Below, one piece after another: positions 6,378-24,254 of a DNA stretch of 30,557 nt. Position numbers and translations under genes: made by a program. The notes under the pieces were generated by a model. The model was given only the letters and a program-made list of their open reading frames with translations. It searched no databases and was not told where the DNA came from. The DNA is from Alphaproteobacteria bacterium (GTDB lineage: Bacteria > Pseudomonadota > Alphaproteobacteria > Rs-D84 > SZUA-605): contig JAVBPW010000008.1 in NCBI GenBank assembly GCA_031549385.1, positions 1 through 30,557 of the forward strand. The letters are read 5' to 3'. How positions within the stretch are numbered: position 1 is the first letter of the stretch; every line of letters begins with the position of its first letter.

Positions 6378-6400
6378 GTTTTAATAAACAAAAGCAAAAT

Positions 6401-6441: not shown

Positions 6442-6461
6442 AAAATCTGTATTGTTTAATC

Positions 6462-6683: not shown

Positions 6684-6750
6684 TTGAGAAATTCAAAATT
6701 TATTCCTATATGTTTTTTGGAAGAAAATAAGGATTAAATTTTAAAAAATC
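6684..6750 (+). promoter_or_regulatory. Orphan promoter plus cassette-type leader with no convincing ORF behind it
   Basis: TTGAGA (6684-6689), 17-nt spacer, TATATG (6707-6712), then AAATTTTAAAAAATC (6736-6750). This is the DHFR-type leader variant plus one A. Only very short ORFs follow before the terminator at 6847. Confidence 0.4.
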
Positions 6751-6846
6751 TAACTACATTATTACTAATAAAAAATAGGCAATTTTAAACAACTGTAGAG
6801 TATGCTTAAGAGAAATTATGGGAGTTGTTTTGATTGTTTGTTTTTG

Positions 6847-6876
6847 TCGCCCCTAGCTTTTAGGGGCGAATTTTTT
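6847..6876 (+). terminator. Strong rho-independent terminator (plus strand)
   Basis: Stem TCGCCCCT (6847-6854) / AGGGGCGA (6862-6869), then the T-run 6871-6876. Confidence 0.75.
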
Positions 6877-6881
6877 GAAAT

Positions 6882-6905
6882 AAAAAAAGGTGAAAATTCA
6901 CCTTT
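6882..6905 (-). terminator. Rho-independent terminator of the minus-strand gene 6904-7350
   Basis: Stem AAAGGTG (6886-6892) / CACCTTT (6899-6905). On the minus strand it is followed by a 7-nt U-run (complement of the A-run 6882-6888). It overlaps the stop codon. Confidence 0.7.
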
Positions 6906-7350
6906 AATTTGTTTGACTGAGAGTAAAACATCTTTTAATTCTCAACATTACCATTGATATATTTCCAGGTAATTCTTTTGTGTTGAGTAGATATTGGAAG
7001 GCTCTCCAAACCATTTCTTCACGAAAACTTTGATTGCTTGTACCAGTATCATCCCAATCTAATTTTTCTAAGATTGGGGTCATGTTATCCCACAGATCTT
7101 CATGAAGAGTTTGAAGACCTTGTTCAAAGTCCAATAAAAGATGTACTTTTAATGTGCTCTCGGCAATACCGAGGTTACAATAATCTTCAACAGACATACC
7201 TTCTTCTTTATTTATAAAGGTGAAACTTTCTTCCTTTAACCACATTATTATTGCAAAAAATGCAAATTTTTTTGAGTAGGTTGAATCTTTCCTTAAAAGA
7301 AATCTGTTCAGCTCTTTTTGGAGGATTTCTCCCATTTCCTTTGTATTCAT
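6904..7350 (-). CDS. Hypothetical protein, 148 aa (leader-tagged cassette gene A)
   Basis: Long ORF in stop-rich AT-rich DNA, with its own TTGACT/TAAATT promoter, the AAACTTAAAAA leader 10 nt before the ATG, and its own terminator. No recognisable motif. Confidence 0.75.
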   Translation of the reverse strand: MNTKEMGEILQKELNRFLLRKDSTYSKKFAFFAIIMWLKEESFTFINKEEGMSVEDYCNLGIAESTLKVHLLLDFEQGLQTLHEDLWDNMTPILEKLDWDDTGTSNQSFREEMVWRAFQYLLNTKELPGNISMVMLRIKRCFTLSQTN

Positions 7351-7360
7351 ACTAATTTAT

Positions 7361-7371
7361 TTTTTAAGTTT
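7361..7371 (-). promoter_or_regulatory. Conserved leader motif AAACTTAAAAA (copy for gene A)
   Basis: The minus strand reads AAACTTAAAAA, then ATAAATTAGT, then ATG. No SD. Confidence 0.7.
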
Positions 7372-7377
7372 GATGTT

Positions 7378-7406
7378 AATTTAAGTGATTATTTATCCTA
7401 AGTCAA
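7378..7406 (-). promoter_or_regulatory. Sigma70-type promoter of gene A
   Basis: The minus strand reads TTGACT (7406-7401), 17-nt spacer, TAAATT (7383-7378). The leader motif starts 6 nt downstream. Confidence 0.6.
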
Positions 7407-7412
7407 GGCTAT

Positions 7413-7463
7413 TTGACAAAATTGTAATATTTTATAGACAAATTAGTAATTTAATTGTATTGT
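7413..7463 (+). promoter_or_regulatory. Promoter region of the DHFR gene, back to back with the gene A promoter
   Basis: TTGACAAA at 7413-7420, plus a second module TTATAGACAA (7431-7441) with a 17-nt spacer and TATTGT (7458-7463). The TTATAGACAA module recurs at 8030-8040. Confidence 0.5.
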
Positions 7464-7468
7464 TTTAT

Positions 7469-7482
7469 AAATTTTAAAAATC
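7469..7482 (+). promoter_or_regulatory. Leader motif variant AAATTTTAAAAATC (DHFR copy)
   Basis: Ends 6 nt before ATG 7489. No SD. Compare AAACTTAAAAATC at 23705-23717. Confidence 0.55.
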
Positions 7483-7488
7483 AAATAT

Positions 7489-8007
7489 ATGAGTAAAATA
7501 AATATTATTGCTGCAGTTGCTAAAAACTGGGGCATTGGTTATCAAGGAGGAATTCCTTGGAAATTGTCAGCAGACATGAAACAATTCAAAAAGCTTACTA
7601 TGGGTGAAAATCCCAATGTAATGAATACTGTGGTTATGGGGCGGAAAACTTTTCAAAGTCTTCCCAAAGGACCATTGCCGGGTAGAGTGAATGTTGTCCT
7701 GACTCGGGATGTTGATTTTAGCTATCCCGATGTTGTTGTGTTACATTCTTTTGAAGATGTTTTGAAAATGTCTGATGGTGCAACCGGTGAAATCTTTATT
7801 ATCGGTGGAGAGCAGGTTTATAAAGATGCTTTACCGTATGCAGATAGGATGTATTTAACATTGGTTTCTGCAAACCCACAATGCGATGCGTTTTTTCCTA
7901 AGTTTGATGCTTGGGATTGGGATCTTGTGTTGGATGAAATGTATTCGTGGGACGAAAAAAACGAATACTCTTACCGGTATTATTATTTAGAAAGAGGAGA
8001 AAATTAG
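7489..8007 (+). CDS. folA: Dihydrofolate reductase
   Basis: 172 aa with DHFR hallmarks: IAAVAKNWGIGYQGGIPW, VVMGRKTFQSLP, PLPGRVNVVLTR, IFIIGGEQVY. Confidence 0.9.
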   Translation: MSKINIIAAVAKNWGIGYQGGIPWKLSADMKQFKKLTMGENPNVMNTVVMGRKTFQSLPKGPLPGRVNVVLTRDVDFSYPDVVVLHSFEDVLKMSDGATGEIFIIGGEQVYKDALPYADRMYLTLVSANPQCDAFFPKFDAWDWDLVLDEMYSWDEKNEYSYRYYYLERGEN

Positions 8008-8029
8008 GAGCTTTATGCTCCTTTTTTTA
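8006..8029 (+). terminator. Rho-independent terminator of the DHFR gene
   Basis: AGGAGC (8006-8011) / GCTCCT (8017-8022), then a T-run. It overlaps the TAG stop. Confidence 0.75.
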
Positions 8030-8033
8030 TTTA

Positions 8034-8062
8034 TAGACAATTTTGAATTTAGAATATAAGAT
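8034..8062 (+). promoter_or_regulatory. Promoter of cassette gene C
   Basis: TAGACA (8034-8039) inside the repeated TTATAGACAA module. TATAAG or TAAGAT lies 15-17 nt downstream. Confidence 0.45.
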
Positions 8063-8080
8063 TGTTTTAAATTCAAAATC

Positions 8081-8091
8081 AAACTTAAAAA
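8081..8091 (+). promoter_or_regulatory. Conserved leader motif AAACTTAAAAA (gene C)
   Basis: Exact 11-mer, 8 nt before ATG 8100. No SD. Confidence 0.7.
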
Positions 8092-8099
8092 TTTTATCT

Positions 8100-8561
8100 A
8101 TGTTTAAATTAATTTTTTCAGAAACCCCCCAAAAGAATTTTAAAGGTTTATCAGATGCATTTTTGCATATTCTTTCAAAAAAGCAATTTAGTGTTGATGA
8201 ATTAAATGGTGTTGTTAGATTGACTTTGTTTAATTCTGGTGTTGTTGATGGTATTTATTGGGATCCGGAGCCTGCAGACCTTGCTGCACGTATTCAAATG
8301 GATAAATTTGGAAATAAATATTTCTTATTTGGAAAATATGTTCCAGGGGAAGTTTTCTTTGCTGGTAGTAAGTATTGTAAATGGTCGCCTGTTTCAATTC
8401 CAAAAGATGCTTTTGTTATTACTGATAATGGAAATGTTAGAAATAAGGCACTGAGATGTGTATTGACTCATTGTGGTAATATCTTTCAACTTCATGAGCC
8501 TAATGAAGTTAGGGCTTTTGAAAGTGAAAATGAATTTACTGCTTGGACTTTTGATTTTTGA
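8100..8561 (+). CDS. Hypothetical protein, 153 aa (cassette gene C, paralog of gene D)
   Basis: The ORF track starts at TTG 8043, but that would place the promoter and leader inside the gene. ATG 8100 sits right after the leader motif. The C-terminal half is collinear with 8659-9102. Confidence 0.75.
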   Translation: MFKLIFSETPQKNFKGLSDAFLHILSKKQFSVDELNGVVRLTLFNSGVVDGIYWDPEPADLAARIQMDKFGNKYFLFGKYVPGEVFFAGSKYCKWSPVSIPKDAFVITDNGNVRNKALRCVLTHCGNIFQLHEPNEVRAFESENEFTAWTFDF

Positions 8562-8581
8562 CCCCGAAAAGGGGTCTTTTT
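8560..8581 (+). terminator. Rho-independent terminator of gene C
   Basis: GACCCC-GAAAA-GGGGTC hairpin followed by TTTTTATTT. Confidence 0.8.
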
Positions 8582-8590
8582 ATTTAAATA

Positions 8591-8618
8591 TTGACAAATA
8601 ATATAATAAGTTTAGGAT
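8591..8618 (+). promoter_or_regulatory. Promoter of cassette gene D
   Basis: TTGACAAA (8591-8598), 16-nt spacer, TAGGAT (8613-8618). Confidence 0.5.
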
Positions 8619-8638
8619 TAATAGCATATTAAATTTTC

Positions 8639-8649
8639 AAACTTAAAAA
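8639..8649 (+). promoter_or_regulatory. Conserved leader motif AAACTTAAAAA (gene D)
   Basis: Exact 11-mer, 9 nt before ATG 8659. No SD. Confidence 0.7.
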
Positions 8650-8658
8650 AATCTATAT

Positions 8659-9102
8659 ATGAAAGAAATAAAAGAAGAAGCTCAACAGGAAATTATCCAG
8701 TTGATGTTTGATCCTTTGATTGATTTGGAAATTCATAAGCAATACCTTATTGAGTTTTCAAAAAATTTAGCTCCTACTGGATTGTTTTCTCCAGAAAATA
8801 AATCTGTGATATTTAATTCTAAAGCTTTTGGCTTTGAGAAAGATGGAACAGTTTACCTTTTTGGTAAAAAGTTATGGACTTTGGATGTTATTTATACATA
8901 CAGTGGTAAAATTTCTCCAAATTCTCCTAACCAAGCCGCTCCGGATACTTTTTATTCTAGGATTGGTTTGAATGATGACAAAAGTTTCCAACGGGTGCTT
9001 GGTCATTGTAGGCTTTTGAATGGGGCTATTGCTTCATTTTATAACGATGTCAAATTCGTTATCTTTGAAACTGAACAAGAATTTTTGAATTATGAATTTT
9101 AA
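8659..9102 (+). CDS. Hypothetical protein, 147 aa (cassette gene D, paralog of gene C)
   Basis: Shares ordered motifs with gene C: Y(F)LFGK, then VL(T/G)HC 46-47 residues later, then the C-terminal FE(S/T)E.EF. Confidence 0.75.
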   Translation: MKEIKEEAQQEIIQLMFDPLIDLEIHKQYLIEFSKNLAPTGLFSPENKSVIFNSKAFGFEKDGTVYLFGKKLWTLDVIYTYSGKISPNSPNQAAPDTFYSRIGLNDDKSFQRVLGHCRLLNGAIASFYNDVKFVIFETEQEFLNYEF

Positions 9103-9153
9103 GTAGAAAAATTTTTTGTTTAGATGTAAAATTATATTAATATTTTAAAAAAT

Positions 9154-9164
9154 AAACTTAAAAA
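9154..9164 (+). promoter_or_regulatory. Conserved leader motif AAACTTAAAAA (mini-ORF pair)
   Basis: Exact 11-mer, 2 nt before ATG 9167. A possible weak promoter precedes it: TTGTTT (9116-9121), 17-nt spacer, AATATT. Confidence 0.6.
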
Positions 9165-9166
9165 AT

Positions 9167-9319
9167 ATGAAAACAAAAATTAAAAATCTTTGGGACGATA
9201 TTCTTTGGTCCAACACCTTTACTTTTGTGGTGGTGTTATGTGCGTTTTATGGAGTGTATTTTGCATTTTATTTTCCAACAAAGTGGTTGGTTGAAATAAT
9301 CAAAACATCATTATTATGA
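9167..9319 (+). CDS. Small single-pass membrane peptide, 50 aa (not in the ORF track)
   Basis: Hand translation: MKTKIKNLWDDILWSNTFTFVVVLCAFYGVYFAFYFPTKWLVEIIKTSLL. Basic N-terminus plus one hydrophobic helix. Sits directly behind the leader motif. Confidence 0.45.
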   Translation: MKTKIKNLWDDILWSNTFTFVVVLCAFYGVYFAFYFPTKWLVEIIKTSLL

Positions 9320-9456
9320 AAAGGAATTTTTTGATTTGGAAAACACTTTGGTGGGAATGCAGAGATTTTACAATATTGAAAGTTATATTGTTTCTTGTTG
9401 TGGCCATAGATCTTATACCGCTTGCGGTAGTACATCTTATTAGATGTGTGTTTTAA
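9316..9456 (+). CDS. Small single-pass membrane peptide, 46 aa (not in the ORF track)
   Basis: ATGA start/stop overlap with the previous mini-ORF. Hand translation: MKRNFLIWKTLWWECRDFTILKVILFLVVAIDLIPLAVVHLIRCVF. Same architecture as the upstream peptide. A terminator follows immediately. Confidence 0.4.
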   Translation: MKRNFLIWKTLWWECRDFTILKVILFLVVAIDLIPLAVVHLIRCVF

Positions 9457-9486
9457 AAAGGGGCTTTTTACAGCCCCTTTGTTTTT
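9457..9486. terminator. Bidirectional terminator between the mini-ORFs and PFOR
   Basis: AAAGGGGCT (9457-9465) / AGCCCCTTT (9472-9480), with an A-run before and a T-run after. Confidence 0.8.
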
Positions 9487-12400
9487 TATACTTCGTTTTT
9501 GAATTTAGAAATGCTTGAGTAAATAGTATTTCTGTATTTGATGTTTCTTTTTGCACTTCTTATTAATCTGTTATAGTGCTTTTCATCTAATCGTTTTACT
9601 ATTCCATAGCGGTTTTCTTTTTCTACATATGATGCAAGTTCACCATCACCTAATTGGCTGTCCAATTGTAATGGAGAAACTCCCTTTCTTACATAGAGTT
9701 TTGGATCATAACGATATAATGGCCAGTGACCTGTCTTTACTGCTTCTTTTTGTTGGTTCAATTGGAACTTCATGTCTATTCCATGTAGAACACAAGGAGC
9801 GTAAGCTATAATCAATGATGGACCATTGTGTGCTTCGGCTTCTCTTATCGCTTTTACTGCTTGAGCTTCATTTGCACCTAATGCTATTCTTGCTACATAA
9901 ACGTTTCCTGATGCCATTGCAAGAAGACCTAAATCCTTCTTTGGTAGAACTTTACCAGTTGATGCAAACTTTGCTGCTGCACCTATTGGAGTTGATTTAG
10001 ATTGTTGCCCACCTGTGTTTGAATATACTTCAGTATCCAATACAAATATATTTACATTTTTGTCTGAATATAAAATATGGTCAAGACCACCATAGCCTAT
10101 GTCATAAGCCCAACCATCACCACCCATAATCCATAATGATTTCTTTATTAAAGATTGAGTTAATTCTGATAGTTCTTTTGCTTTTTCACTTTTGATGTTT
10201 TTCAATTTAGCATTAAGTTCTTTTACTAATGCTCTTTGTTCTTTTATTTCAACATCATTTGATTGTTTGTTATTTATTATTTGATTGATGAAATCTAAAC
10301 CTAGTTCATCTTTTAAATCTTTTAATAATATAACTGCAGTTTCTGTGTTTTTATCTAGTGCTAAACGCATTCCAAATCCATATTCTGCATTGTCTTCAAA
10401 TAATGAATTTGACCACGCTGGGCCACGTCCGTCTGAATTCTTTGTGTATGGAGTTGTTGGTAAGTTTCCACCGTAAATAGATGAACATCCTGTTGCGTTT
10501 GATATTAACATTCTGTCACCAAAGAGTTGTGTTAATAATTTAACATATGGAGTTTGTCCACATCCTGCACATGACCCTGAAAATTCAAATAATGGAGTTA
10601 CTAATTGATTATGTTTTGTTATGTTCATATTCAATAGCGATTTGTCTATATCAGGTAATGATGCACAATATTCAAATGCTCTTTCTTTTTGTTCGAGATT
10701 GTTTTGAATATCTTCCATTACTAATGCAGGAATTTCTTTTGTTTTCATTGGACAGTTTTCTACACATAATCCACAGCCTGTACAGTCGTGTGGGGATATT
10801 GTGATAGCGTAATTATATCCTTGTCCCAATTCTGGAGTTTTATAATCTGCACTTTTGAAATTATCTGGTGCATTTTCTAATTGTTCTTTTGTTAGCACTT
10901 TTGATCTGATGGATGCATGAGGACATACTAATGAACATTTTCCACATTGAATACAACTTTCTAAATTCCAACAAGGTACTTGAGATGCTATTGATCTTTT
11001 TTCGTATTTTGTTGTACCTGATGGAAATTGACCGTTTGTATCTGAGAATGCTGATACAGGAAGATCATCTCCTTTCCCTTTTATCATTTGACTTATTACA
11101 TTCTTTACAAAGTCTGGGGCTGATAATGGAACATTGTCTGACATTAATGGAGCTTTCTTACTTACAGCTTTTGGATGATCAAAACGATATAGATTTTCTA
11201 CTGCTTTATCTATAGCTGCTATATTCATTTCAATAATTTTTTCACCTTTTTTACCATATGTCTTTTTTACTGACCTTTTAATATAGTCAGAAATTTTTTC
11301 AAAATCAGCTAGCTTTGATAAATAGAAGAAACATGTTTGCATAATTGTGTTTGTTCTAAAACCTAATCCTAAATCACGAGCAAGACGACCTGCATCTATT
11401 ATGTAAATAGTTAAATTTTTATCAAGAATTTGCTTTTGAACTTCTTGTGGTATTTGATCCCAAAGAGTATCTGCTTCGTAAGGAGAATTGATTAATAATA
11501 TTCCACCTTCTTTTGCATTAGCTAATACATCTTGTTTAAAGAACATTGGAAAATGAGATACTGATGTGAAGTCTGCATTTTCTACTAGGTATGGACTTTT
11601 TATTTGTGTGTCTTTTATACGCAAGTGAGAACATGTAAATCCACCTGATTTTTTAGAATCATATACACTGTAATTTTGTACGTACTTTCCAGTATTGATA
11701 TTTATTATGTCAGCTGAATTTTTTGATGCTCCAACTGTTCCGTCTGAACCTAATCCAAAGAACATTGCTTTATAAGCATCATCTTTGAAGTCATATTTTA
11801 AATCATCAAGTGATAATTTTGTTACATCATCATTTATTCCTACTACAAATTCTTTTTTAGGATTTGGTTTTGATAGTTCTTCAAATATTTGTTTTACATG
11901 GTATGGTGTGAATTCTTTTGAACCTAGTCCATATCTTCCACCTATTACTTCTATACCTTCAAGTTTGTTTCTTTTTAATGCTGCTACTACATCCAAGAAT
12001 AATGGTTCACCAACTGAACCAGGTTCTTTTGTTCTGTCGAGTACTGCTATTTTTTTTACGTTTGATGGAAGTAGTTTTGAAAACTTTGCAACTGGAAAAG
12101 GGCGGTATAGGCGAATCTTTATTAAACCTAACTTTGCACCTTTTTTGTTTTCTTGGTCTATTGTTTCTTCTATAATATCACAAGATGATCCCATTGATAC
12201 TATAATGTTTTCTGCATCTTTGTTTCCATAGTATTCTACTGTGTCATAGTATCTTCCTGTTTTGTTTCCAAATTCGTTTAATACATCTTCTACTATTGAA
12301 ATTACATTATTATAAGTTGGGTTTTGAGCTTCACGACCTTGGAAGAATACGTCTGGGTTTTGAGCTGTTCCTCTTATACATGGTTTTTCTGGTGTTAAAC

Positions 12401-13019
12401 CATTATCTCTTTTTTCTTTAATTAATTTTTTATCTAATAATGATAAAATAGTTTCATCTGAAATTTGTTCTATTGATGTTATTTCATGTGATGTTCTGAA
12501 ACCATCAAAATAGTGTAAGAATGGAACTTTTGCTTTTAATGTTGATAAATGAGCAACCAATGCCATGTCATGTGATTCTTGGACATTGTTTGAACCTAAT
12601 ATTGCGAATCCTGTTTCTCTTACTGTCATGATGTCACTGTGGTCGCCAAAGATTGATAGAGCATGAGTTGCTACTGCTCTGGCTGCTACATGCATTACAA
12701 ATTGATGGCCTTCGCCGGCTATTTTATACATGTTTGGTATCATTAATAATAAACCTTGAGAAGCTGTGAATGTTGATACCTGAGCTCCAATTTGAAGAGC
12801 ACCATGTACTGCTCCTATAGCTCCTGCTTCTGATTGCATGATTGTAACGTTTGCTGTGTTACCGAAAATGTTTTTTCTTTGTTTTGATGAGAAAGTTTCA
12901 AAAATTTCTGCCATAGTTGATGAGGGGGTTATCGGATAGATAACAGCCAAATCAGATAAACGGTAGGCTATATCTGCTGCTGCTTCATTGCCATCGCAGA
13001 CGTAACTATTTTTAAACAT
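9486..13019 (-). CDS. nifJ: Pyruvate:ferredoxin (flavodoxin) oxidoreductase, single-chain
   Basis: 1177 aa. Two 4Fe-4S ferredoxin motifs (CIQCGKCSLVCP, CTGCGLCVENCP), the TPP-binding GGDGWAYDIGYGG, and the typical PFOR N-terminus DGNEAAA..AY. SD AAGGA. Confidence 0.95.
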   Translation of the reverse strand: MFKNSYVCDGNEAAADIAYRLSDLAVIYPITPSSTMAEIFETFSSKQRKNIFGNTANVTIMQSEAGAIGAVHGALQIGAQVSTFTASQGLLLMIPNMYKIAGEGHQFVMHVAARAVATHALSIFGDHSDIMTVRETGFAILGSNNVQESHDMALVAHLSTLKAKVPFLHYFDGFRTSHEITSIEQISDETILSLLDKKLIKEKRDNGLTPEKPCIRGTAQNPDVFFQGREAQNPTYNNVISIVEDVLNEFGNKTGRYYDTVEYYGNKDAENIIVSMGSSCDIIEETIDQENKKGAKLGLIKIRLYRPFPVAKFSKLLPSNVKKIAVLDRTKEPGSVGEPLFLDVVAALKRNKLEGIEVIGGRYGLGSKEFTPYHVKQIFEELSKPNPKKEFVVGINDDVTKLSLDDLKYDFKDDAYKAMFFGLGSDGTVGASKNSADIININTGKYVQNYSVYDSKKSGGFTCSHLRIKDTQIKSPYLVENADFTSVSHFPMFFKQDVLANAKEGGILLINSPYEADTLWDQIPQEVQKQILDKNLTIYIIDAGRLARDLGLGFRTNTIMQTCFFYLSKLADFEKISDYIKRSVKKTYGKKGEKIIEMNIAAIDKAVENLYRFDHPKAVSKKAPLMSDNVPLSAPDFVKNVISQMIKGKGDDLPVSAFSDTNGQFPSGTTKYEKRSIASQVPCWNLESCIQCGKCSLVCPHASIRSKVLTKEQLENAPDNFKSADYKTPELGQGYNYAITISPHDCTGCGLCVENCPMKTKEIPALVMEDIQNNLEQKERAFEYCASLPDIDKSLLNMNITKHNQLVTPLFEFSGSCAGCGQTPYVKLLTQLFGDRMLISNATGCSSIYGGNLPTTPYTKNSDGRGPAWSNSLFEDNAEYGFGMRLALDKNTETAVILLKDLKDELGLDFINQIINNKQSNDVEIKEQRALVKELNAKLKNIKSEKAKELSELTQSLIKKSLWIMGGDGWAYDIGYGGLDHILYSDKNVNIFVLDTEVYSNTGGQQSKSTPIGAAAKFASTGKVLPKKDLGLLAMASGNVYVARIALGANEAQAVKAIREAEAHNGPSLIIAYAPCVLHGIDMKFQLNQQKEAVKTGHWPLYRYDPKLYVRKGVSPLQLDSQLGDGELASYVEKENRYGIVKRLDEKHYNRLIRSAKRNIKYRNTIYSSISKFKNEV

Positions 13020-13052
13020 TTAGTTTTCCTTTTTTTTAGTTAATAGGGTCTA

Positions 13053-13081
13053 ATTATAGAAAATTTTGTCATATATTGCAA
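13053..13081 (-). promoter_or_regulatory. Candidate promoter of PFOR
   Basis: The minus strand reads TTGCAA (13081-13076), 17-nt spacer, TATAAT (13058-13053). Confidence 0.55.
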
Positions 13082-13172
13082 TTTTTTAATTTATTAGTCT
13101 TTTTTAGACAAAATATTTTGTTTACTTTTGAAAAATTAACTTTATCATTAAAAGAAAAATGGAGGTTATGTT

Positions 13173-16458: not shown

Positions 16459-16523
16459 ATTTATTACTTTCTTTTTTAATTTTAATATATTATATTATAT
16501 ACATTATAAGGAAAAAATAAACA

Positions 16524-17288: not shown

Positions 17289-17292
17289 TCCA

Positions 17293-17320
17293 TTGACTTT
17301 TATTTTAAATCAATTAAATT
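17293..17320 (+). promoter_or_regulatory. Orphan promoter in the bamD-lptB intergenic region
   Basis: TTGACT (17293-17298), 16-nt spacer, TAAATT (17315-17320). No ORF follows. Confidence 0.45.
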
Positions 17321-17329
17321 GGTGTTTAA

Positions 17330-17506
17330 TAAGTTAAATAAACATACAAAAATGAAATTTTAAATCGATTTTGAAGAAGCCTGAGCCGATGTGGGTTTCA
17401 AAAATAGGCATAATGTAGAGTTTCAAAAGGTTCAGGTGAACCACCATCTCTTACCCCCATAAGGATGTTCAAAATCTTAAGCCTCCACGTGTTGGAGGCT
17501 TTTTTA
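17330..17506 (+). ncRNA. Candidate small RNA of about 175 nt, unknown family
   Basis: Bounded by the promoter above and the strong terminator at 17479-17506. GC-richer than its surroundings. Internal stem ATGTGGGT/ACCCCCAT. Three GTT(T)CAAAA repeats. No ORF longer than 10 codons. Confidence 0.4.
17479..17506. terminator. Rho-independent terminator, usable from both strands (candidate sRNA and lptB)
   Basis: AAGCCTCCA-CGTG-TTGGAGGCTT followed by TTTTTATTTT. Confidence 0.8.
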
Positions 17507-17525
17507 TTTTATGATTTCTTATTTT

Positions 17526-18266
17526 TTAAAAGTCTGATTTGAAGTCTTCGCCAAGGTATACTTTTTTTACATCTTTATTGGCTACTAATTCTTTTGGTTT
17601 ACCATGAGCTAACATATAACCATCGTGTAAAATGTATGCACGGTTTGTTATTTTTAGAGTTTCTGCTACGTTATGGTCTGTGATTAATACTCCTAAACCT
17701 CTTTCTTTTAAATGAGATACTAGGGTTCTTATGTCATTTACAGCAATTGGGTCAACTCCTGCAAATGGTTCGTCAAGCAATATGAATTTTGGATTTGTTG
17801 CTAAAGCTCTTGCAATTTCAGTTCTTCTTCTTTCACCACCTGATAGTGAAATGGCTAATGCATCTCTTAAATGTTCTATTGAGAATTCTGCCATCAACTC
17901 TTCACATTTCTTTTCACGTTTTGATTTTGATGGTTCTACTACTTCTAAGATTGCCATAATATTATTATAAACTGTTAGGTTTCTGAATACTGAGTTTTCT
18001 TGTGGAAGGTAGCCTATACCCATTTGTGCACGTTTGTAAAATGGAAGAGATGTTATATCATAGTCGTCTAAATATATTTTTCCACCATTTGGTAATATCA
18101 ATCCTGTTACACAATAAAAACATGTTGTTTTTCCAGCTCCATTTGGGCCTAATAATCCTACTACTTCACCTTGTGTTAAATCTAATGAAATGTTTTTTAG
18201 AATAGGGCGACGGCCATAACTTTTTTTAATTCTTTCTAACCTTAATGTTGATGGAGTGTTCTTCAT
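17526..18266 (-). CDS. lptB: LPS export ABC transporter ATP-binding protein LptB
   Basis: Walker [10 protein letters not shown], signature LSGGERRR, Walker [12 protein letters not shown], and the LptB-typical [12 protein letters not shown]. Confidence 0.92.
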
Positions 18267-19063
18267 TATAGTTTGTCCTTTTCTATTGCGCCTTCTATCA
18301 TTGGTGTTGCTTTATCCGTTGTATTGAATGTACCATGGATTTGTGTTTCACCTTTTTTAGGATGCAATCTTGTTATTCCTGTTTTCATATTGTATTCAAG
18401 AAGACCACCGTCTAATGTTGCTTGATTTCCTCTTTTGATTGATACAGAGTTTGTGATTTTTGCAAAACCTGATTTTGCATCATAGATTGCGTTGTCACCT
18501 GTTAATTCTTCTGTTTCAGTTGTGAGTTTTACGCCGCCTGTTGCTTCTGCTTTTGATAGTCCAAATTTACCGTCTATTTTTTCAAAGTAAGCAGTCATTG
18601 TTTTTGAACTTAGAATTCTTTTACCTTGTTTGATTTGTCCGTCTGTTGCAACTGCGATACCTTTTATGTGATTGTATTTTATTGTGTTTGGTGATGATAA
18701 AACTATGTCATCATAATAAAGACGAGTTGTTGGAGAACCTGTTAATTCCATTTGTCCTGTTTCAAGATTATATGTAACTTTTTTTGTTTCGATTCTTTCT
18801 TTTGCTGATGTTATTTGAACGTCACCTATTGCTTCTACTTTATAAATTTGTGGTTGTTTTTTTGCATCTTCTTTGTAATAAGCTATAATTTTGTCTGCTG
18901 TTAGTGTCATGTCACCACGTTCTATTTTTGCATTTTTAATAGCTGATAGAGTTTTTTTTGATTGATTTAATTCCAAACCATTTTCTGCTGTCAAATTTAC
19001 TGTTTGACCAAAAGATAAATGGCTTATGAATAAAACTGATAAAAATAGTAAGAGTTTTTTCAT
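18266..19063 (-). CDS. lptA: LPS transport periplasmic protein LptA (OstA-like), long form
   Basis: Signal peptide plus repetitive beta-jellyroll-like sequence. Sits between lptC and lptB with overlapping start and stop codons. At 265 aa it is about 80 aa longer than E. coli LptA. Confidence 0.7.
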
Positions 19064-19668
19064 GGAAGATCGATGTCCTTTAACATAGTGTCTGAAATTG
19101 TTGCTTTGATGTTTCCTTTTAATATTATATCACCATTTAAGGTAAAATCCAACCCATCAGCTTCAATTGTGTTTAATCCATTTTGAATTACTACACGAAC
19201 ATCTGATTTTGCTGTCATATTTTTTGTGTCTATGTTTAGACTTGTTGTGTCTAATTTATATCCATCCTCTGTTAGTAATGTTATGTTTTCATAAAGATTG
19301 ATAATTTTAGTTTCTTTGTTGTATCTTCCTTTTGAGGCAGAAAATCCAGCCCATCTTGAATCAGAAATTGTTATTTCACCTTCTATGTTTTGAAGGACCA
19401 CATTGTTGTCTTCTGAATTTTGTTCGATTGCTTTTTTAATTTCTAATGATAATGGTCTGTCATTTTGGTCTGTACCAAAAAATCTTGCATTCGTTAGTGT
19501 GAATACACTTGGATTTTTTACATTTACTTTTGGAATCTTTAATTTTAAATCATCTGTTTGAATACCAGAATAAGGAAGAAGTAAAAGAGAAAATACTACG
19601 CCAGCAAGAACTAGCATTAGTATTTTCATCTTTTTTACAAACTTAAAATAACCTTTTGGTTCTGACAT
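19060..19668 (-). CDS. lptC: LPS export system protein LptC
   Basis: 202 aa with an N-terminal membrane anchor followed by a beta-rich periplasmic domain. Conserved position between kdsD and lptA. 4-nt overlap with lptA. Confidence 0.65.
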   Translation of the reverse strand: MSEPKGYFKFVKKMKILMLVLAGVVFSLLLLPYSGIQTDDLKLKIPKVNVKNPSVFTLTNARFFGTDQNDRPLSLEIKKAIEQNSEDNNVVLQNIEGEITISDSRWAGFSASKGRYNKETKIINLYENITLLTEDGYKLDTTSLNIDTKNMTAKSDVRVVIQNGLNTIEADGLDFTLNGDIILKGNIKATISDTMLKDIDLP

Positions 19669-20645
19669 TATTGTCCTTGTTTGAGGATTGATTTTGAATT
19701 AGTTATTCCTACTAAACGATTTTTTGAATCAATTACAAAACAAAAGTCTGTTGCAGAATCTGATAAAGCAGTATGTGCTTCATATGCTGGAGCTTCTTCT
19801 GAAATTGTTGGAATTTTTGTAATTATTTCAGAAACTTTGTTTACTTTTTTAATTAATAGGTCTTGATTTGTTACTGTACCTATTACTTCTTTTTTATCGT
19901 TTTCTATTACAATTACTCCTGGAGTTTTTTGATATGTTTTAAGCAAGTTTTCTAATGTTTCATTTTCTTTTATTTTAATTAATTTAACATTTTTGTCTGT
20001 TAGAGATTTTGCTTTGATTAATGATGAGCCTAGTTTTCCACCTGGGTGCCATTGTTTGTATGCTTCTGGGTTTAATCCCCAACGTTCTGCCATTACGATT
20101 GCTATTGCATCACCTAATGCCAATGTCATTGTAGTTGATACTGTTGGTGCTTTTCCAATTGGACATGCTTCTGGTACATTTACCATAATTAATGGAACAT
20201 CTGCTTTTTTTGCTAATGTAGAATTTGCTACACGGCATACTCCAATTAATGGAATTTTATTTTTGTTACAATAATTTAAAAGGTCAAATAACTCTTTTGA
20301 TTCACCTGAGTTTGATAATGCCATAACTACATCATTTTTTGTTATCATTCCAAGATCACCATGTGATGCTTCTGATGGATGAACAAAGAAAGATGGTGTT
20401 CCCATTGATGCAAATGTTGCTGCCATTTTTTTGCCTACATGACCTGATTTACCAACGCCTGTTACAATTAATTTTCCTTTTTTTTGAACTTCTTCTAATA
20501 AGTGTAGAGTTTTGATAAAGTTCTTAGAAAATTCCTTCTCATTTAATTGATCAGCCATTAATTTGATTGCATGTGATTCTTGGAATAATACTGCTTGAGC
20601 TGATTTGATTCTGTTAAGTGAGTGGTTTAATTGTTTTTCTAACAT
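19668..20645 (-). CDS. kdsD: Arabinose-5-phosphate isomerase KdsD (SIS + tandem CBS)
   Basis: SIS motif GVGKSGHVGKKMAATFASMGTPSFFVHPSEASHGDLGM plus a C-terminal CBS pair. SD AAGGA. Confidence 0.9.
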   Translation of the reverse strand: MLEKQLNHSLNRIKSAQAVLFQESHAIKLMADQLNEKEFSKNFIKTLHLLEEVQKKGKLIVTGVGKSGHVGKKMAATFASMGTPSFFVHPSEASHGDLGMITKNDVVMALSNSGESKELFDLLNYCNKNKIPLIGVCRVANSTLAKKADVPLIMVNVPEACPIGKAPTVSTTMTLALGDAIAIVMAERWGLNPEAYKQWHPGGKLGSSLIKAKSLTDKNVKLIKIKENETLENLLKTYQKTPGVIVIENDKKEVIGTVTNQDLLIKKVNKVSEIITKIPTISEEAPAYEAHTALSDSATDFCFVIDSKNRLVGITNSKSILKQGQ

Positions 20646-20674
20646 TTATTATCCTTATTTTGAGTTATGGTCAG

Positions 20675-20704
20675 ATTATAGCAAAAAATGCCTTAGTAAT
20701 TCAA
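20675..20704 (-). promoter_or_regulatory. Promoter of the kdsD-lptCAB operon
   Basis: The minus strand reads TTGAAT (20704-20699), 18-nt spacer, TATAAT (20680-20675). Confidence 0.6.
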
Positions 20705-20707
20705 GCT

Positions 20708-21799
20708 TTATTTTAGAATCCTTGGTAGTAAATAGTTTAATATTTTTTGCTGTGAGGCTGTCAGTTTGATTGAATTATTTCTTATTTTTATATTGTTTTT
20801 TTCAAGTTCTTTTAAATCGAAAATATTTTCAAATTTTAATCCTGTTTTTTTAACTAACAAATCTTGTTTGAATGGTTTGTTTATTCTTAGGTGCATTAGA
20901 ATTATTTCTGTTGTTCTATCAATATTAGAAATTCTTTTAGGAGTTGTTTGTTTTTCTTCCCATTTATTTATATCAGCTGGATTTTCAAGTTTATACCAAA
21001 TACCGTTTTTTTGAAATCTGGCATGAGCTGAGGGACCTATTGCAAAATAGTTATCACCTTGCCAATAAATTAAGTTATGTTTACATTCAAATCCTTTTTT
21101 ACAATAATTTGATGTTTCATATTTTTTATAACCATTATATTTTAAAATTCTGTTTGTTAGATTATATAATTTTTCATCATTTTTATTTGTTATTCCTGGA
21201 GCATAGATTTTTCCAAACGGAGTAGATTTTTCTATTGTTAATTGATAGATAGATAAATGAGGAAGATTTAGTTTTGCTATTTCTTCAATTTCTTTTTGCC
21301 AGTTATCAATTTTTTGATTTGGAAGGGCATACATAAAGTCACATGAAATATTATCAAATAATGATTTAGTTTCGTTTATTATTTGGATGTTGTCTTTTGT
21401 GTTGTTGATGCGACCTAAGAAGTTTAGGTTTTCATCATTCATGCTTTGACAGCCTATTGAAATTCGGTTTATACCTAAGTTTTTTAAGAATTTTAGTTTA
21501 TCAAAGTTGATTGTTTTTGGATTTACTTCTATTGATATTTCTGCATTTTTATCAATAGTGAAAACTTTTTTTATTTCTTTGAAAAGGTTTAAAAGTAAGT
21601 TTTCTGACATTAATGAGGGTGTGCCACCGCCTATAAATATAGAAGTTAGTTTTTTGTTTTCTACGTCTTTATAGATTTGTAAATCTCTTATATAACCTTT
21701 GAGTAGTTTTTCATCGTCTGCTTTTTCACAAATTGAGTAAAAGTCACAATAAGGACATTTGCGAATGCAATGAGGAAAATGAATGTATAACCCTTGCAT
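20708..21799 (-). CDS. hemW: Radical SAM heme chaperone HemW (HemN-like, oxygen-independent coproporphyrinogen oxidase family)
   Basis: LYIHFPHCIRKCPYCDF CxxxCxxC radical-SAM cluster motif. The preferred start is ATG 21799 (MQGLYIHFP) rather than the GTG 21811 used by the track. Confidence 0.88.
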   Translation of the reverse strand: MQGLYIHFPHCIRKCPYCDFYSICEKADDEKLLKGYIRDLQIYKDVENKKLTSIFIGGGTPSLMSENLLLNLFKEIKKVFTIDKNAEISIEVNPKTINFDKLKFLKNLGINRISIGCQSMNDENLNFLGRINNTKDNIQIINETKSLFDNISCDFMYALPNQKIDNWQKEIEEIAKLNLPHLSIYQLTIEKSTPFGKIYAPGITNKNDEKLYNLTNRILKYNGYKKYETSNYCKKGFECKHNLIYWQGDNYFAIGPSAHARFQKNGIWYKLENPADINKWEEKQTTPKRISNIDRTTEIILMHLRINKPFKQDLLVKKTGLKFENIFDLKELEKNNIKIRNNSIKLTASQQKILNYLLPRILK

Positions 21800-21945
21800 T
21801 AGAAACTCCACATAATGGGCTGCGATTTTGCAAATTTGAAAATTTTAACTTGGTCAACGTAACCGCATGTATGCCTCCCGCGTGAAAATTTTTGTTTTAC
21901 AATTCTCGCTCCATTCTTTGAAGTTTCTGACTTTTCTATTTTCAT
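21799..21945 (-). CDS. Small basic hypothetical protein, 48 aa, translationally coupled on both sides (not in the ORF track)
   Basis: Hand translation: MKIEKSETSKNGARIVKQKFSRGRHTCGYVDQVKIFKFAKSQPIMWSF. Its ATG overlaps the queH TGA (ATGA) and its TAA overlaps the hemW ATG (TAATG). Locally higher GC. Confidence 0.4.
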   Translation of the reverse strand: MKIEKSETSKNGARIVKQKFSRGRHTCGYVDQVKIFKFAKSQPIMWSF

Positions 21946-22514
21946 TTATTTCCTTTGTTTCGAATACTGAATTCACAACCACAATAGTTTTGATTGTAGA
22001 TATCATATTTGGTTATTAAATCTTTCTTTCTTTGTGGATTTGAAATTTCTTTCCAATTATAATCAAAATATGGGAGGTTGTTTTTTATCTCAGATGCAGC
22101 TTTATTTACTTGATTTATGTCTTTGAAACGAGAAATACCTAATGTAGATGAAATTATATCAAAGTTGTTTTCTTTTGCATATTGGAAAGCTTTTTTTAAT
22201 CTCATAGCAAAACACTTTTCACAACGTTTTCCTTGCTCTGGTTCAGATTCTAATCCATTTATTTCTTTTAAATAATCTTGATGATTTGGTTTTATTTCTG
22301 AAAAACTAACGTCTAATTCTTTACAAAGTCTTTTATTTGTATCTAATCTTTTTTGATATTCGGTTTCGGGAAATATGTTTGGATTGTAAAAAAGAACTTC
22401 AAAATTTATATCGTTGTTTTTTAATAAAGTTATTATTTCTATACTGCATGGAGCACAGCAAGATAGAAGCAATAATTTTTTGTTTTTCAAAGTTGCAATT
22501 GACATTTGGTTCAT
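21942..22514 (-). CDS. queH: Epoxyqueuosine reductase QueH (DUF208)
   Basis: CCAPCS, YNPNI.P..EY, CEKCF..RL and YCGCEFS motifs in the QueH order. The start is uncertain: ATG 22514 or 22505 is preferred over the TTG 22550 used by the track. Confidence 0.8.
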   Translation of the reverse strand: MNQMSIATLKNKKLLLLSCCAPCSIEIITLLKNNDINFEVLFYNPNIFPETEYQKRLDTNKRLCKELDVSFSEIKPNHQDYLKEINGLESEPEQGKRCEKCFAMRLKKAFQYAKENNFDIISSTLGISRFKDINQVNKAASEIKNNLPYFDYNWKEISNPQRKKDLITKYDIYNQNYCGCEFSIRNKGNK

Positions 22515-22560
22515 AGAACTTAAAATAGAGGAACATATCAGGATTTTCAAGGAGATAAGT

Positions 22561-23661
22561 TTGAAGAAGTTTTTATTAGTTTTTGGCAGTTTAGTTTTAT
22601 TATCAAGTTTTGCATCTGCGGCTTCTCCTTGGGCTTATAAATTTAATGGGTATCTTAATAACATTGTGGCTTATGGCGACTTAGAAAGATACAGTACAAC
22701 TGATAATAAATTTAAGTATTCTTTAGATGCTCGAGTTTTAGGGGAACTTTCTTATAAGAGTAGGGATTTTACTATTGGACTTAGAGCAGAAGCAGAATCA
22801 GATTATATCTTTAAAGAAGGTTATGTTTTTTTACAATTTCCTTTTATCAGATTTGAAGCAGGACGAGCTTTAAATTTGGCAGAAAAACTTCATGTTGCAG
22901 TGCCAGAAGCTTCTTTTTCTCGTTTTAATAATGATAGCTATATTTATGATCTGGTGAATAATACTCAGGTTGCTCATTTGACTACTACTGCTCTTAATTC
23001 TGATGATAAATCTCAAAAATTGTCTATTATTTCTTCTAAATGGAAAGGGTTTCAAATAGGGGCTTCTTATGCTCCAGGGCAAGCTTCAGGTTATAATAAA
23101 AAATATGAATTTTATGATGACGAAAATGATGGGCATTTTGAAAATTCCTATTCTGCTGGAATTAGATTTATGCAAGATTGGGGATATTATAAATTGGCTG
23201 TTTCTGGTGGTTTTTTAGAAACTAATAAAGCTAATGATATAAGGATTGATCTTAGTGGAGTTAAAGATAGTTTTGAAAAAAGAACTGAATATTCTTCTGG
23301 TATTAATCTTACTCTTGGAAATGTTGTTATTGGGGCAGCTGGACGTATTATAAATGAAGTAGCTCCTTATAACCCTTCTGGGAATTCATATGAAGGATAT
23401 GTGGCAGCTGGTGGAATTTCTTATACTTTCTTACAATATGCAGTTTCCTTCGATTACCAAAGGTCTGTTATGGCTGGACAGTATAATATTGAGGGAGATG
23501 ACATAGTTAACCTTTATCAAGTGTCTTTTAAGTATAATCCTAAGAAAAAGTGGCATTTATGGCTTTCTGTAGGGTATATTGATATGTATGATGAGACTGA
23601 GTTGGAGGAAAATGAGACTAAGGGAGTGGTTGGTTTGTTAGGATTAACATACGTTTTCTAA
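22561..23661 (+). CDS. Outer-membrane porin-like beta-barrel protein
   Basis: A TTG start at 22561, 6 nt after SD AAGGAG, gives the signal peptide MKKFLLVFGSLVLLSSFASAA. Alternating beta-strand pattern. C-terminus GLLGLTYVF with terminal Phe. The N-terminal extension in the track overlaps queH and is rejected. Confidence 0.75.
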   Translation: MKKFLLVFGSLVLLSSFASAASPWAYKFNGYLNNIVAYGDLERYSTTDNKFKYSLDARVLGELSYKSRDFTIGLRAEAESDYIFKEGYVFLQFPFIRFEAGRALNLAEKLHVAVPEASFSRFNNDSYIYDLVNNTQVAHLTTTALNSDDKSQKLSIISSKWKGFQIGASYAPGQASGYNKKYEFYDDENDGHFENSYSAGIRFMQDWGYYKLAVSGGFLETNKANDIRIDLSGVKDSFEKRTEYSSGINLTLGNVVIGAAGRIINEVAPYNPSGNSYEGYVAAGGISYTFLQYAVSFDYQRSVMAGQYNIEGDDIVNLYQVSFKYNPKKKWHLWLSVGYIDMYDETELEENETKGVVGLLGLTYVF

Positions 23662-23667
23662 AAATAC

Positions 23668-23696
23668 TTGACAAATATTAAGTTTTATGCTATATT
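23668..23696 (+). promoter_or_regulatory. Promoter of cassette gene F
   Basis: TTGACAAA (23668-23675), 17-nt spacer, TATATT (23691-23696). Confidence 0.6.
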
Positions 23697-23704
23697 ATTA
23701 GTAT

Positions 23705-23715
23705 AAACTTAAAAA
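23705..23715 (+). promoter_or_regulatory. Conserved leader motif AAACTTAAAAA (gene F)
   Basis: Exact 11-mer, 8 nt after the -10 and 10 nt before ATG 23726. No SD. Confidence 0.7.
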
Positions 23716-23725
23716 TCAAAAAAAC

Positions 23726-24172
23726 ATGAATATAACTGAGAAAGTCCGGGAGAACCTGGAAAAATATAAGCCGCTGGGTGTGACAGAAAAGGAATTGTTT
23801 GCTTTTCCTACCCAATTAGGTAGGGATCTTTGGCAGCTTGAAAGCAAATTTGTGGAGATTGTCCGCAGAAGAAATGCTACCTATCTTAGGTATTGGATAT
23901 TCGATAAAGGGCGGTTGCCCAAGCAAAAATACCGGAAGTTGCCGGTAAGCCAAATACAAGGGGAAGACATTGTTAAAGTTTTTTTCCTGAAAGATTGGAA
24001 TCTTTTGCTTGAGCAATACTTGATAACTGAGGGGCATTTGCCAGATCCGTTTGTTCATCTTGCTTTTTTATCAGGACATTTCAAAAGATTTTGTACTGAT
24101 AGGCGGTTTGAACTGCTTGATCATCAGAAAAAGCAATACGCTTATTATAGCAATTTAATGAAGGGGGAGTAA
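23726..24172 (+). CDS. Hypothetical protein, 148 aa (cassette gene F)
   Basis: Long ORF with its own promoter, leader and terminator. Its first 60 nt are 26/60 G+C by hand count, against 14/60 for the first 60 nt of lptA. Confidence 0.75.
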   Translation: MNITEKVRENLEKYKPLGVTEKELFAFPTQLGRDLWQLESKFVEIVRRRNATYLRYWIFDKGRLPKQKYRKLPVSQIQGEDIVKVFFLKDWNLLLEQYLITEGHLPDPFVHLAFLSGHFKRFCTDRRFELLDHQKKQYAYYSNLMKGE

Positions 24173-24190
24173 TCTCCCTTTCTTTTTTAT
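24161..24190 (+). terminator. Rho-independent terminator of gene F
   Basis: GGGAG (24165-24169) / CTCCC (24174-24178) with the stop codon in the loop, then TTTCTTTTTT. Confidence 0.6.
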
Positions 24191-24194
24191 CTGA

Positions 24195-24223
24195 TTGACA
24201 AAATTTAACGTAGTTGTTATGGT
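24195..24223 (+). promoter_or_regulatory. Promoter of cassette gene G
   Basis: TTGACAAA (24195-24202), 17-nt spacer, TATGGT (24218-24223). Confidence 0.55.
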
Positions 24224-24243
24224 TGTTTCATCTGATAATCTTT

Positions 24244-24254
24244 AAACTTAAAAA
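24244..24254 (+). promoter_or_regulatory. Conserved leader motif AAACTTAAAAA (gene G)
   Basis: Exact 11-mer, 4 nt before ATG 24259. No SD. Confidence 0.7.

Follow-up and report, generated by a model that had tools for sequence, protein, structure and literature searches.

What is the function of an 11-nucleotide (nt) sequence that recurs, without a single change, directly before the start codons of small genes that lack a Shine-Dalgarno (SD) sequence? The question is raised by a stretch of alphaproteobacterial DNA (contig JAVBPW010000008.1 of assembly GCA_031549385.1), in which the 11-mer AAACTTAAAAA precedes six such genes, designated here A to F. The window is this one entire contig of 30,557 bp, and all motif counts given below are confined to it. 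On both strands together the 11-mer is matched exactly seven times, against 0.47 +/- 0.66 expected, and none of 100 dinucleotide shuffles reached seven. Six of these copies lie in the sense orientation 2-10 nt before the ATG of a small gene (Table 1). By our own estimate, ~0.4% of the positions in the window, counted separately on each strand, fall 2-10 nt before an annotated start, so that the placement of six out of seven copies in them cannot be due to chance. The six leader copies, with their positions, spacings and sense orientation, are as the initial annotation had described them, whereas its statement that the sequence occurs nowhere else in the window was wrong: murJ contains a seventh exact copy within its coding sequence, on the coding strand, and no ATG follows. 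This copy is most likely a chance occurrence outside the system, as a chance expectation of ~0.5 is compatible with one such copy. The motif itself is thus no random occurrence but a genuine signal for the expression of a class of genes that look foreign.

The degree of identity between the leader copies is absolute, with 66 of 66 motif positions identical, while the promoter spacers, the remainder of the 5' untranslated regions (UTRs) and the encoded proteins have diverged. Such identity in front of diverged or unrelated proteins argues for selection on every base by a sequence-specific reader, and not for mere recent duplication. The motif is flanked at position -1 by a pyrimidine in all cases (C, C, C, T, T, T) and at +12 by A or T; beyond the motif and these flanks nothing is conserved in the upstream regions of the six genes. 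It is asymmetric, not palindromic, and is without a significant partner half-site. A literature search for the sequence returned primers only and, when compared by eye, the known boxes CtrA, FNR/FixK, IHF, alphaproteobacterial LexA, the sigma32 -35 and the ECF -35 elements do not fit it. The possibility that the motif is the end of an upstream open reading frame (ORF) was also rejected on our own reading, since in D, E and F the in-frame codon ahead of ACT-TAA is already a TAA, and no AUG lies upstream.

The motif spans -3 to -21 relative to the AUG and thereby occupies the slot in which core genes of the contig carry AAGGA or GGAG. To score SD sequences, the best duplex of the -20 to -1 region with the 16S rRNA 3' tail, GAUCACCUCCUUUC, was taken for each gene. 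Seven genes with the motif or a variant of it (the variant precedes a dihydrofolate reductase (DHFR) gene) had a mean of -0.14 kcal/mol, whereas 14 core genes, whose leaders show AAGGA, GGAG or GGAGG, had a mean of -6.0 kcal/mol (Mann-Whitney p=0.001). The 16S terminus is normal (...GGATCACCTCCTTTC). Two observations of the initial annotation, that the motif genes have no purine-rich SD and that most neighbouring core genes have one alongside a normal anti-SD end, are thus borne out quantitatively. Its further proposal that the motif replaces the SD is upheld for position alone, as no rRNA pairing could be found to support the mechanism. The complement of the motif was sought in the 16S, 23S and 5S rRNAs without any site with two or fewer mismatches being found, and the best duplex of the motif with 16S rRNA (-4.3 kcal/mol) is what shuffled motifs give on average (-4.2 +/- 1.1, 200 shuffles). 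Pairing with rRNA, whether SD-like or of the type proposed for the T7 epsilon enhancer, is ruled out by the mismatch search, the shuffle comparison and the anti-SD duplexes. In the absence of complementarity to any of the three rRNAs the motif cannot act like an SD sequence, which it replaces in position only. No RNA structure was found around the motif either, most of the leader and start regions being unstructured (z-scores -0.8 to +1.5). Unstructured A/U-rich leaders permit 30S binding that is independent of the SD.

Is the motif transcribed? Promoters were predicted as matches to the sigma70 consensus, and all six leader copies are located downstream of the best sigma70-like -10, so the motif is probably transcribed from these predicted promoters. 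The gap between -10 and motif is 5-8 nt for DHFR, A and E, in which the motif would start at about the predicted +1, and 18-21 nt for B, C, D and F. Overall, the distance of the motif to the best -10 ranges from 5 to 22 nt and that to the ATG from 2 to 10 nt only, which confirms the earlier impression that it is tied more tightly to the start codon. With this tighter coupling, a role after transcription initiation or at the RNA level, or a site for a regulator, is more likely than a promoter element of the classical kind. TTGACAAA forms the -35 of C, E and F and is also present upstream of DHFR. Behind each of DHFR, B and E stands a GC-rich hairpin with a T-run, and 5-12 nt separate it from the -35 of the gene that follows (B, C and F, respectively). 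Most of the genes accordingly have a sigma70-like promoter and a terminator of their own, as expected if they are individually transcribed; this description probably does not extend to D. There is no terminator in the C-D interval, D has only a weak promoter match, and D overlaps the small ORF D2, which is followed by a terminator, such that C-D-D2 probably form one transcript. The D copy of the motif, whose cistron appears to be internal to a transcript, is easier to explain as a signal for translation than as a promoter or an operator. At the second locus, there is no terminator between the porin gene and E, and a read-through transcript could sequester the E leader.

The genes that carry the motif differ from their surroundings in both homology and composition. 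With DHFR set apart, none of the proteins of A to F, nor D2, matches Pfam, NCBIfam, PHROG or PADLOC. Among 5.8 billion proteins gene C finds only itself, no homologue of E was found among billions of proteins, and a profile of B and C retrieved B and C only from 1.84 billion cluster representatives; A and F match neither phage records nor plasmids. The products of A, B, C, E and F are 147-161 aa in length and lack signal peptides. B and C are tandem distant paralogues (26% identity) with a common C-terminal VLxHC...G.I...FExExEF pattern, while E and F are at best marginally similar to each other; a single-sequence AlphaFold model of C was unusable (pLDDT 41). D and D2 have the appearance of a translationally coupled pair of small membrane peptides. 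The GC content at third codon positions (GC3) averages 0.29 for the seven motif or variant genes, against 0.176 (range 0.12-0.235) for 17 core genes (Mann-Whitney p=0.002); B alone is core-like, and the remaining motif or variant genes exceed every core gene. The genes are inserted between housekeeping genes at two loci, from 5S rRNA to the pyruvate:ferredoxin oxidoreductase gene (PFOR) and from porin to rpe. Given this composition and the orphan (ORFan) status of the genes searched, the picture shifts from one of co-regulated core genes to that of an expression signal of an acquired class. The motif probably marks a compositionally distinct, horizontally acquired class of genes that includes DHFR.

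Table 1. Positions of the motif copies, of the genes behind them and of other features in the window (promoters and terminators are predictions)
Feature	Position	Strand	Remarks
Motif copy 1 (cAAACTTAAAAAa)	7361..7371	-	10 nt before gene A ATG
Motif copy 2 (cAAACTTAAAAAt)	8081..8091	+	8 nt before gene B ATG
Motif copy 3 (cAAACTTAAAAAa)	8639..8649	+	9 nt before gene C ATG
Motif copy 4 (tAAACTTAAAAAa)	9154..9164	+	2 nt before gene D ATG; probably intercistronic in C-D-D2 transcript
Motif copy 5 (tAAACTTAAAAAt)	23705..23715	+	10 nt before gene E ATG
Motif copy 6 (tAAACTTAAAAAt)	24244..24254	+	4 nt before gene F ATG
Seventh exact copy of AAACTTAAAAA	16005..16015	-	within murJ
Variant leader AAATTTTAAAAATC	7469..7482	+	6 nt before DHFR ATG
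Orphan variant AAATTTTAAAAAATC	6736..6750	+	no ATG within 50 nt; 5' side of candidate small RNA
12-mer AAATTTTAAAAA, two copies	7469-7480; 6736-6747		within variant leader and orphan variant
Gene A	6904..7350	-	148 aa; no family or phage match; GC3 0.28
DHFR	7489..8007	+	172 aa; PF00186, E=1e-52; GC3 0.32; no SD
Gene B	8100..8561	+	153 aa; ORFan; distant paralogue of C; GC3 0.17
Gene C	8659..9102	+	147 aa; ORFan; GC3 0.25
Gene D	9167..9319	+	50 aa; hydrophobic; GC3 0.31
D2	9316..9456	+	46-aa hydrophobic ORF, unlisted; ATG overlaps D TGA (ATGA); terminator directly after
Gene E	23726..24172	+	148 aa; ORFan; GC3 0.42, highest in window
Gene F	24259..24744	+	161 aa; no family or phage match; GC3 0.28
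Promoter-like site of A (TTGACT-17-TAAATT)	7378..7406	-	motif starts 6 nt after -10
Promoter-like site of DHFR (TAGACA-17-TATTGT)	7435..7463	+	variant starts 5 nt after -10
Promoter-like site of B (TAGACA-17-TAAGAT)	8034..8062	+	motif starts 18 nt after -10
Promoter-like site of C (TTGACA-16-TAGGAT)	8591..8618	+	motif starts 20 nt after -10
Promoter-like site of E (TTGACA-17-TATATT)	23668..23696	+	11/12, with TG; motif starts 8 nt after -10
Promoter-like site of F (TTGACA-17-TATGGT)	24195..24223	+	with TG; motif starts 20 nt after -10
Terminator-like hairpin and T-run after DHFR	8006..8022	+	
Terminator-like hairpin and T-run after B	8560..8576	+	
Terminator-like hairpin and T-run after C-D-D2	9457..9480	+	
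Terminator-like hairpin and T-run after E	24160..24182	+	
Bidirectional terminator-like hairpin	6886..6905	-	3' end of A
Inverse motif copy in E promoter spacer	23678-23685		8 nt; faces 23705-23712
Inverse motif copy in C promoter spacer	8607-8613		7 nt; faces 8639-8645
One-mismatch copy AAGCTTAAAAA	3464-3474	+	5' strand of 23S processing stem
Complement of one-mismatch copy	6425-6435		3' strand of 23S processing stem
23S processing stem	3440-3500 / 6400-6462		
Candidate small RNA	6720-6878	+	between 5S rRNA and gene A; terminator 6847-6869; ATG of 12-aa ORF at 6819
T7 gene 10 epsilon sequence	13136-13144	+	plsY leader
Porin start region	22499-22563		start TTG 22561; 9-mer core AACTTAAAA at 22517-22525
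Giant ORF	27651-30557	+	at least 969 aa; near-repeats, e.g. 28114-28144 and 28531-28561

Besides the exact copies, the window contains the DHFR variant leader and an orphan variant, both reported in the initial annotation and both present. They have in common the 12-mer AAATTTTAAAAA, whose two copies are only marginally unusual on their own (6 of 100 shuffles reach two). The DHFR leader is probably a diverged member of the motif class, and is counted as such because the gene has no SD and an atypical GC3. Two further matches with one mismatch, AAGCTTAAAAA and its complement, are not members of the class. They are explained by the 23S processing stem, of which they form the two strands: AAAAGCTTAAAAATCGCGATTTTT on the 5' side of the 23S rRNA gene pairs with its complement on the 3' side in a duplex of -40 kcal/mol. 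The orphan variant is located in the single-stranded 5' part of a candidate structured small RNA that combines a long hairpin with a terminator (minimum free energy -37.8, z=-3.3) and has no Rfam match; the same region could instead hold a 12-aa ORF (MGVVLIVCFCRP).

How, then, might an invariant element without rRNA complementarity act from a position adjacent to the start codon? The reading that is tentatively preferred here makes YAAACTTAAAAAW part of the transcribed 5' UTR, where a sequence-specific factor acting in trans would recognise it and so control initiation without an SD. This reading accounts best for the combination of a strict sense orientation, a place downstream of the predicted promoter, a closer coupling to the ATG than to the -10, the copy before the probably internal cistron D, the lack of an SD, the unstructured A/U-rich surroundings, the asymmetry and the perfect identity of the copies. 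Ordinary sigma70-type promoters would drive the small foreign-looking accessory genes, most of them ORFans and probably including DHFR, placing YAAACTTAAAAAW in the transcribed 5' UTR and within the footprint of the 30S subunit. Initiation on the unstructured A/U-rich leaders would proceed independently of any SD, and the 11-mer would be the recognition site of a trans-acting RNA-binding protein or small RNA encoded elsewhere in the genome. Such a factor would gate the access of ribosomes, as either activator or repressor, and the motif genes would form one post-transcriptional regulon, an idea that we regard as plausible. Transcription of the motif from the predicted promoters, its action on RNA and the existence of a factor acting in trans are our inferences. 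The suggestion of the initial annotation that the motif has an RNA-level or translational role, or is a regulator site, and is not a promoter element, retains its footing in the closer coupling to the ATG but loses the SD-like mechanism.

A number of observations weigh against this interpretation. The evidence is drawn from one 30.5-kb contig, and consensus promoter matches are frequent in AT-rich DNA, with 18 found against 15 expected in one region. The spacing to the ATG (2-10 nt) is looser than that of a true ribosome-positioning signal, and the exact identity of the copies could stem in part from common origin and not from selection. No complementary intergenic RNA of at least 8 nt is encoded in the window, the 23S processing stem apart. 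The candidate small RNA upstream of the PFOR locus genes, at 6720-6878, does not pair preferentially with the leaders of motif genes over those of core genes, and was rejected as the reader.

Comparison with other genomes likewise provides no support. The contig has a GC content of ~30% and contains a 16S-tRNAIle-tRNAAla-23S-5S rRNA operon together with core genes for a methyltransferase, PFOR, PlsY, DprA, MurJ, BamD, LptB, LptA, LptC, KdsD, a radical-SAM protein, QueH, a porin, Rpe, an FtsA-like protein and Fmt, and the start of a giant secreted protein. By our own reading its 16S rRNA carries alphaproteobacterial signatures. The nearest PFOR among 5.8 billion proteins is 60% identical, several near matches being labelled as metagenome-assembled genomes (MAGs) of Alphaproteobacteria or Rickettsiales, and with no closer relative than this the lineage is poorly sampled; evidently the genome is not among the Genome Taxonomy Database (GTDB) representatives. 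The same region has also been assembled by Logan from run SRR23967709; exact-protein look-ups yielded only Logan contigs of this run that fall inside the window, and look-ups for C, DHFR and DprA yielded nothing. The closest PFOR homologues (60% identity) lie at loci that show no synteny with the window and do not contain the motif. A wider scan was made with the pattern TTGACAAA-N28-58-AAACTTAAAAA-N2-10-ATGAA, which matches C, E and F in the window. It returned single, chance-like matches, 82 in GTDB species representatives, at least 120 in metagenome contigs and 14 in IMG/VR, and no motif array was present at any locus fetched from the GTDB, JGI (metagenome contigs, among the matches listed) or IMG/VR scans. 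With no arrays in the scans and no motif beside the relatives' PFOR, the reading preferred above is without comparative support; among the sequences covered by the scans, no contig but this one has the array.

Four of the 82 GTDB matches belong to gut MAGs labelled 'uncultured Alphaproteobacteria' (L145, L147, L153 and L162), each with one copy; the contigs are CALXVV010000015.1 for L147, CALXVW010000007.1 for L153 and CALXWC010000006.1 for L162. In L162 (33% GC) the same arrangement, TTGACAAA-17-TATATT ... TAAACTTAAAAAT ... ATGAAA, precedes a small membrane protein. Another feature of the contig is the giant ORF itself, which runs off the contig end, begins with a signal peptide and has very few charged residues, no Pfam domain, internal near-repeats and the lowest GC3 in the window (0.12).

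Known 5'-UTR elements offer partial parallels to the proposed regulon. In common with the SD, the motif is a short conserved element within ~10 nt of the start codon, in the same slot; unlike the SD, it is an invariant 11-mer and not a degenerate purine run, has no pairing with rRNA, stands 2-10 nt from the ATG where an SD usually lies ~5-10 nt away, and is confined to one class of genes. A second parallel is with A/U-rich, S1-dependent enhancers such as the T7 gene 10 'epsilon' (UUAACUUUA), which has the pentamer AACUU in common with the motif. The motif leaders are similarly A/U-rich and unstructured upstream of the AUG; however, generic enhancers of this kind are not invariant in sequence, as the motif is, and epsilon is proposed to pair with helix 17 of 16S rRNA, for which the 16S rRNA of this contig has no complementary site. 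The epsilon sequence is absent from the leaders of the motif genes. The leader of plsY does contain an exact copy, TTAACTTTA, ahead of a strong SD (GGAGG), but this is probably a coincidence. A third parallel is with regulons defined by a 5'-UTR motif, namely the targets of GcvB (C/A-rich enhancers), the GGA sites of CsrA and the A-rich CA motifs of Crc/Hfq; the C/A-rich target element of GcvB also acts as an enhancer. These resemble the situation proposed here, in which a short single-stranded motif near the start is common to unlinked mRNAs under one trans-factor. They differ in that the present motif contains neither GGA nor ARN repeats and is far more strictly identical between sites.

A bolder form of the proposal, to which we attach only a modest probability, holds that the motif is a dedicated initiation signal in its own right, operating without SD or rRNA pairing, with a lineage-specific reader that would license translation of a whole class of acquired ORFans alongside the SD-led core genes, as an expression code private to the accessory genome. 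Such a reader may be a protein that binds RNA, a coupling factor resembling NusG, or a small RNA.

The same placement of the motif can be explained at the level of DNA, and this alternative is doubtful without being far-fetched. In this case, a transcription factor would bind the double-stranded 11-mer between the -10 and the start, and would either repress the regulon, by acting as a roadblock or preventing promoter clearance, or activate it. Relative to the predicted promoters the motif lies at ~+1 to +26, where repressor sites are often found, and unlinked genes at two loci share it. In addition, perfect 7-8 nt inverse copies of the motif (TAAGTTT, TTAAGTTT) are present in the promoter spacers of C and E, such that the two arms bracket the -10. 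However, shuffled upstream sequence contains such inverse copies (at least 7 nt) just as often as the promoter spacers of B, C and E do (P=0.31), and the spacing between the arms varies, being 19 nt in E and 25 nt in C, with a weaker copy in B only 8 nt away. Neither dyad symmetry nor half-sites at a fixed spacing, as expected of a dimeric operator, were found, and an asymmetric motif is not typical of regulators that bind DNA as dimers. The six copies are also less constrained in their distance to the -10 (6-21 nt) than in that to the ATG, while a strict sense orientation and 11/11 identity at all sites would be unusual for bacterial operators, and the D copy is probably intercistronic. An operator therefore fits the asymmetry, orientation and spacing of the motif less well than an RNA element read in trans.

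It is unlikely that the motif, as opposed to the genes, is merely a by-product of gene acquisition with no role in expression. The 11-mer would then be a junction or remnant of module acquisition or shuffling (moron-, PeSL- or integron-like), kept by descent or by a recombinase. T4-type PeSL cassettes, which consist of a stem-loop and a sigma70-like promoter, are found preferentially upstream of ORFans and mediate modular shuffling (PMC2839356). The genes of this contig are small, those searched are ORFans, their GC3 is atypical and they are wedged between housekeeping genes at two loci. Each unit is composed of a stem-loop terminator, an A/T-rich stretch, a strong sigma70-like promoter (TTGACA/TAGACA-16/17-TAnnnT), a leader and an ORF, so that, in common with PeSLs and phage morons, the stem-loop and promoter stand directly before small ORFans. 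DHFR genes are, moreover, frequent in phages, with 1374 matching phage records. Against this, extended similarity between cassettes and a phage context are both lacking: the modules have no more than 11-13 nt in common, which is not enough for homologous recombination, and are otherwise unrelated, while the setting is a bacterial chromosome, among an rRNA operon and housekeeping genes. PeSLs also end in a normal SD, which the motif here replaces. Genes for an integrase, recombinase or transposase are absent from the window, neither A nor F matches a phage or a plasmid, and strict placement by the ATG is not expected of a junction. Integron cassettes in particular can be discounted, as the 3' ends are plain GC-rich hairpins with T-runs and no attC cores (GTTRRRY/RYYYAAC pairs) are found at the cassette boundaries.

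It is similarly improbable that the motif is itself a proximal promoter, in which TAAAAA(T) would serve as a -10 and AAACT as its upstream extension, giving rise from a second or alternative-sigma promoter to leaderless or near-leaderless mRNAs. Leaderless mRNAs need no SD, and a promoter box in place of a ribosome-binding site (RBS) is a known signature of leaderless genes, as in the 'group C' genomes of GeneMarkS-2. The motif resembles such boxes in being a conserved A/T-rich element found instead of an RBS a few nt before the ATG. Leaderless boxes place TAnnnT at a fixed 6-8 nt before the ATG, at which transcription starts; in A to F the ATG stands 8, 7, 6, 0, 9 and 3 nt beyond the T closing the A-run. 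Four of the six (A, B, C and E) fit, being near the usual -10-to-start distance, whereas in D and F the start would fall inside the ORF. The porin promoter, TTGACA-16-TAAAAT, provides a local precedent, as it contains the 9-mer core AACTTAAAA as the end of its spacer plus the -10 (AACTTAAAAT being used as spacer and -10). Nevertheless, the motif-ATG distance is not fixed (2-10 nt), no -35-like hexamer is seen on our own reading 16-18 nt before TAAAAA in any of the six, much better TTGACA-17-TAnnnT promoters are present upstream, and the invariant AAACTT half is left unexplained by a -10 element. The start of the porin gene itself was revised to TTG 22561, which has AAGGAG 6 nt upstream, in place of the TTG at 22414 in the ORF list.

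In every operon controlled by RfaH the transcribed leader contains an asymmetric element of 12 nt that hardly varies (ops/JUMPstart); these leaders lack an SD, and the 30S subunit is recruited via S10 (PMC5995543). An ops-like signal, by which a NusG paralogue would shield foreign SD-less transcripts from Rho and recruit the ribosome via S10, or the related version of a sigma70-dependent promoter-proximal pause at the -10-like TAAAAA(T), would formally match the present motif on four counts (an invariant, asymmetric ~12-nt element; its location in the leader; targets without an SD; and their foreign, apparently acquired composition, by the GC3 difference above), but the two together are very unlikely, given that the motif is unrelated in sequence to ops (GGCGGTAGnnTG is absent, and no leader matches GGCGGTAG with one or no mismatch), contains no G and cannot form an ops-type hairpin, that known NusG paralogues act on few long operons and not on short, ~450-nt monocistronic genes with terminators of their own, that no such paralogue is encoded in the window, and that the mechanism does not require the closeness to the ATG shown by a motif that abuts it.

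If the motif proved to be only an operator or a cassette scar, it would be an ordinary lineage-specific regulatory motif. As it stands, this lineage-specific leader motif of a probably acquired class of orphan genes is a shared cis-regulatory leader that defines a set of genes; it is of practical use as a marker of start codons and gene class in the annotation of such MAGs, and could serve as bait for the factor that reads it. Should it be a functional leader, as tentatively preferred here, it would mark a separately controlled set of accessory genes in an almost unsampled bacterial lineage. It would also constitute a clean case in which SD-led and SD-less initiation coexist in one genome, divided according to gene class, and would make the expression or silencing of foreign and orphan genes without an SD directly testable.

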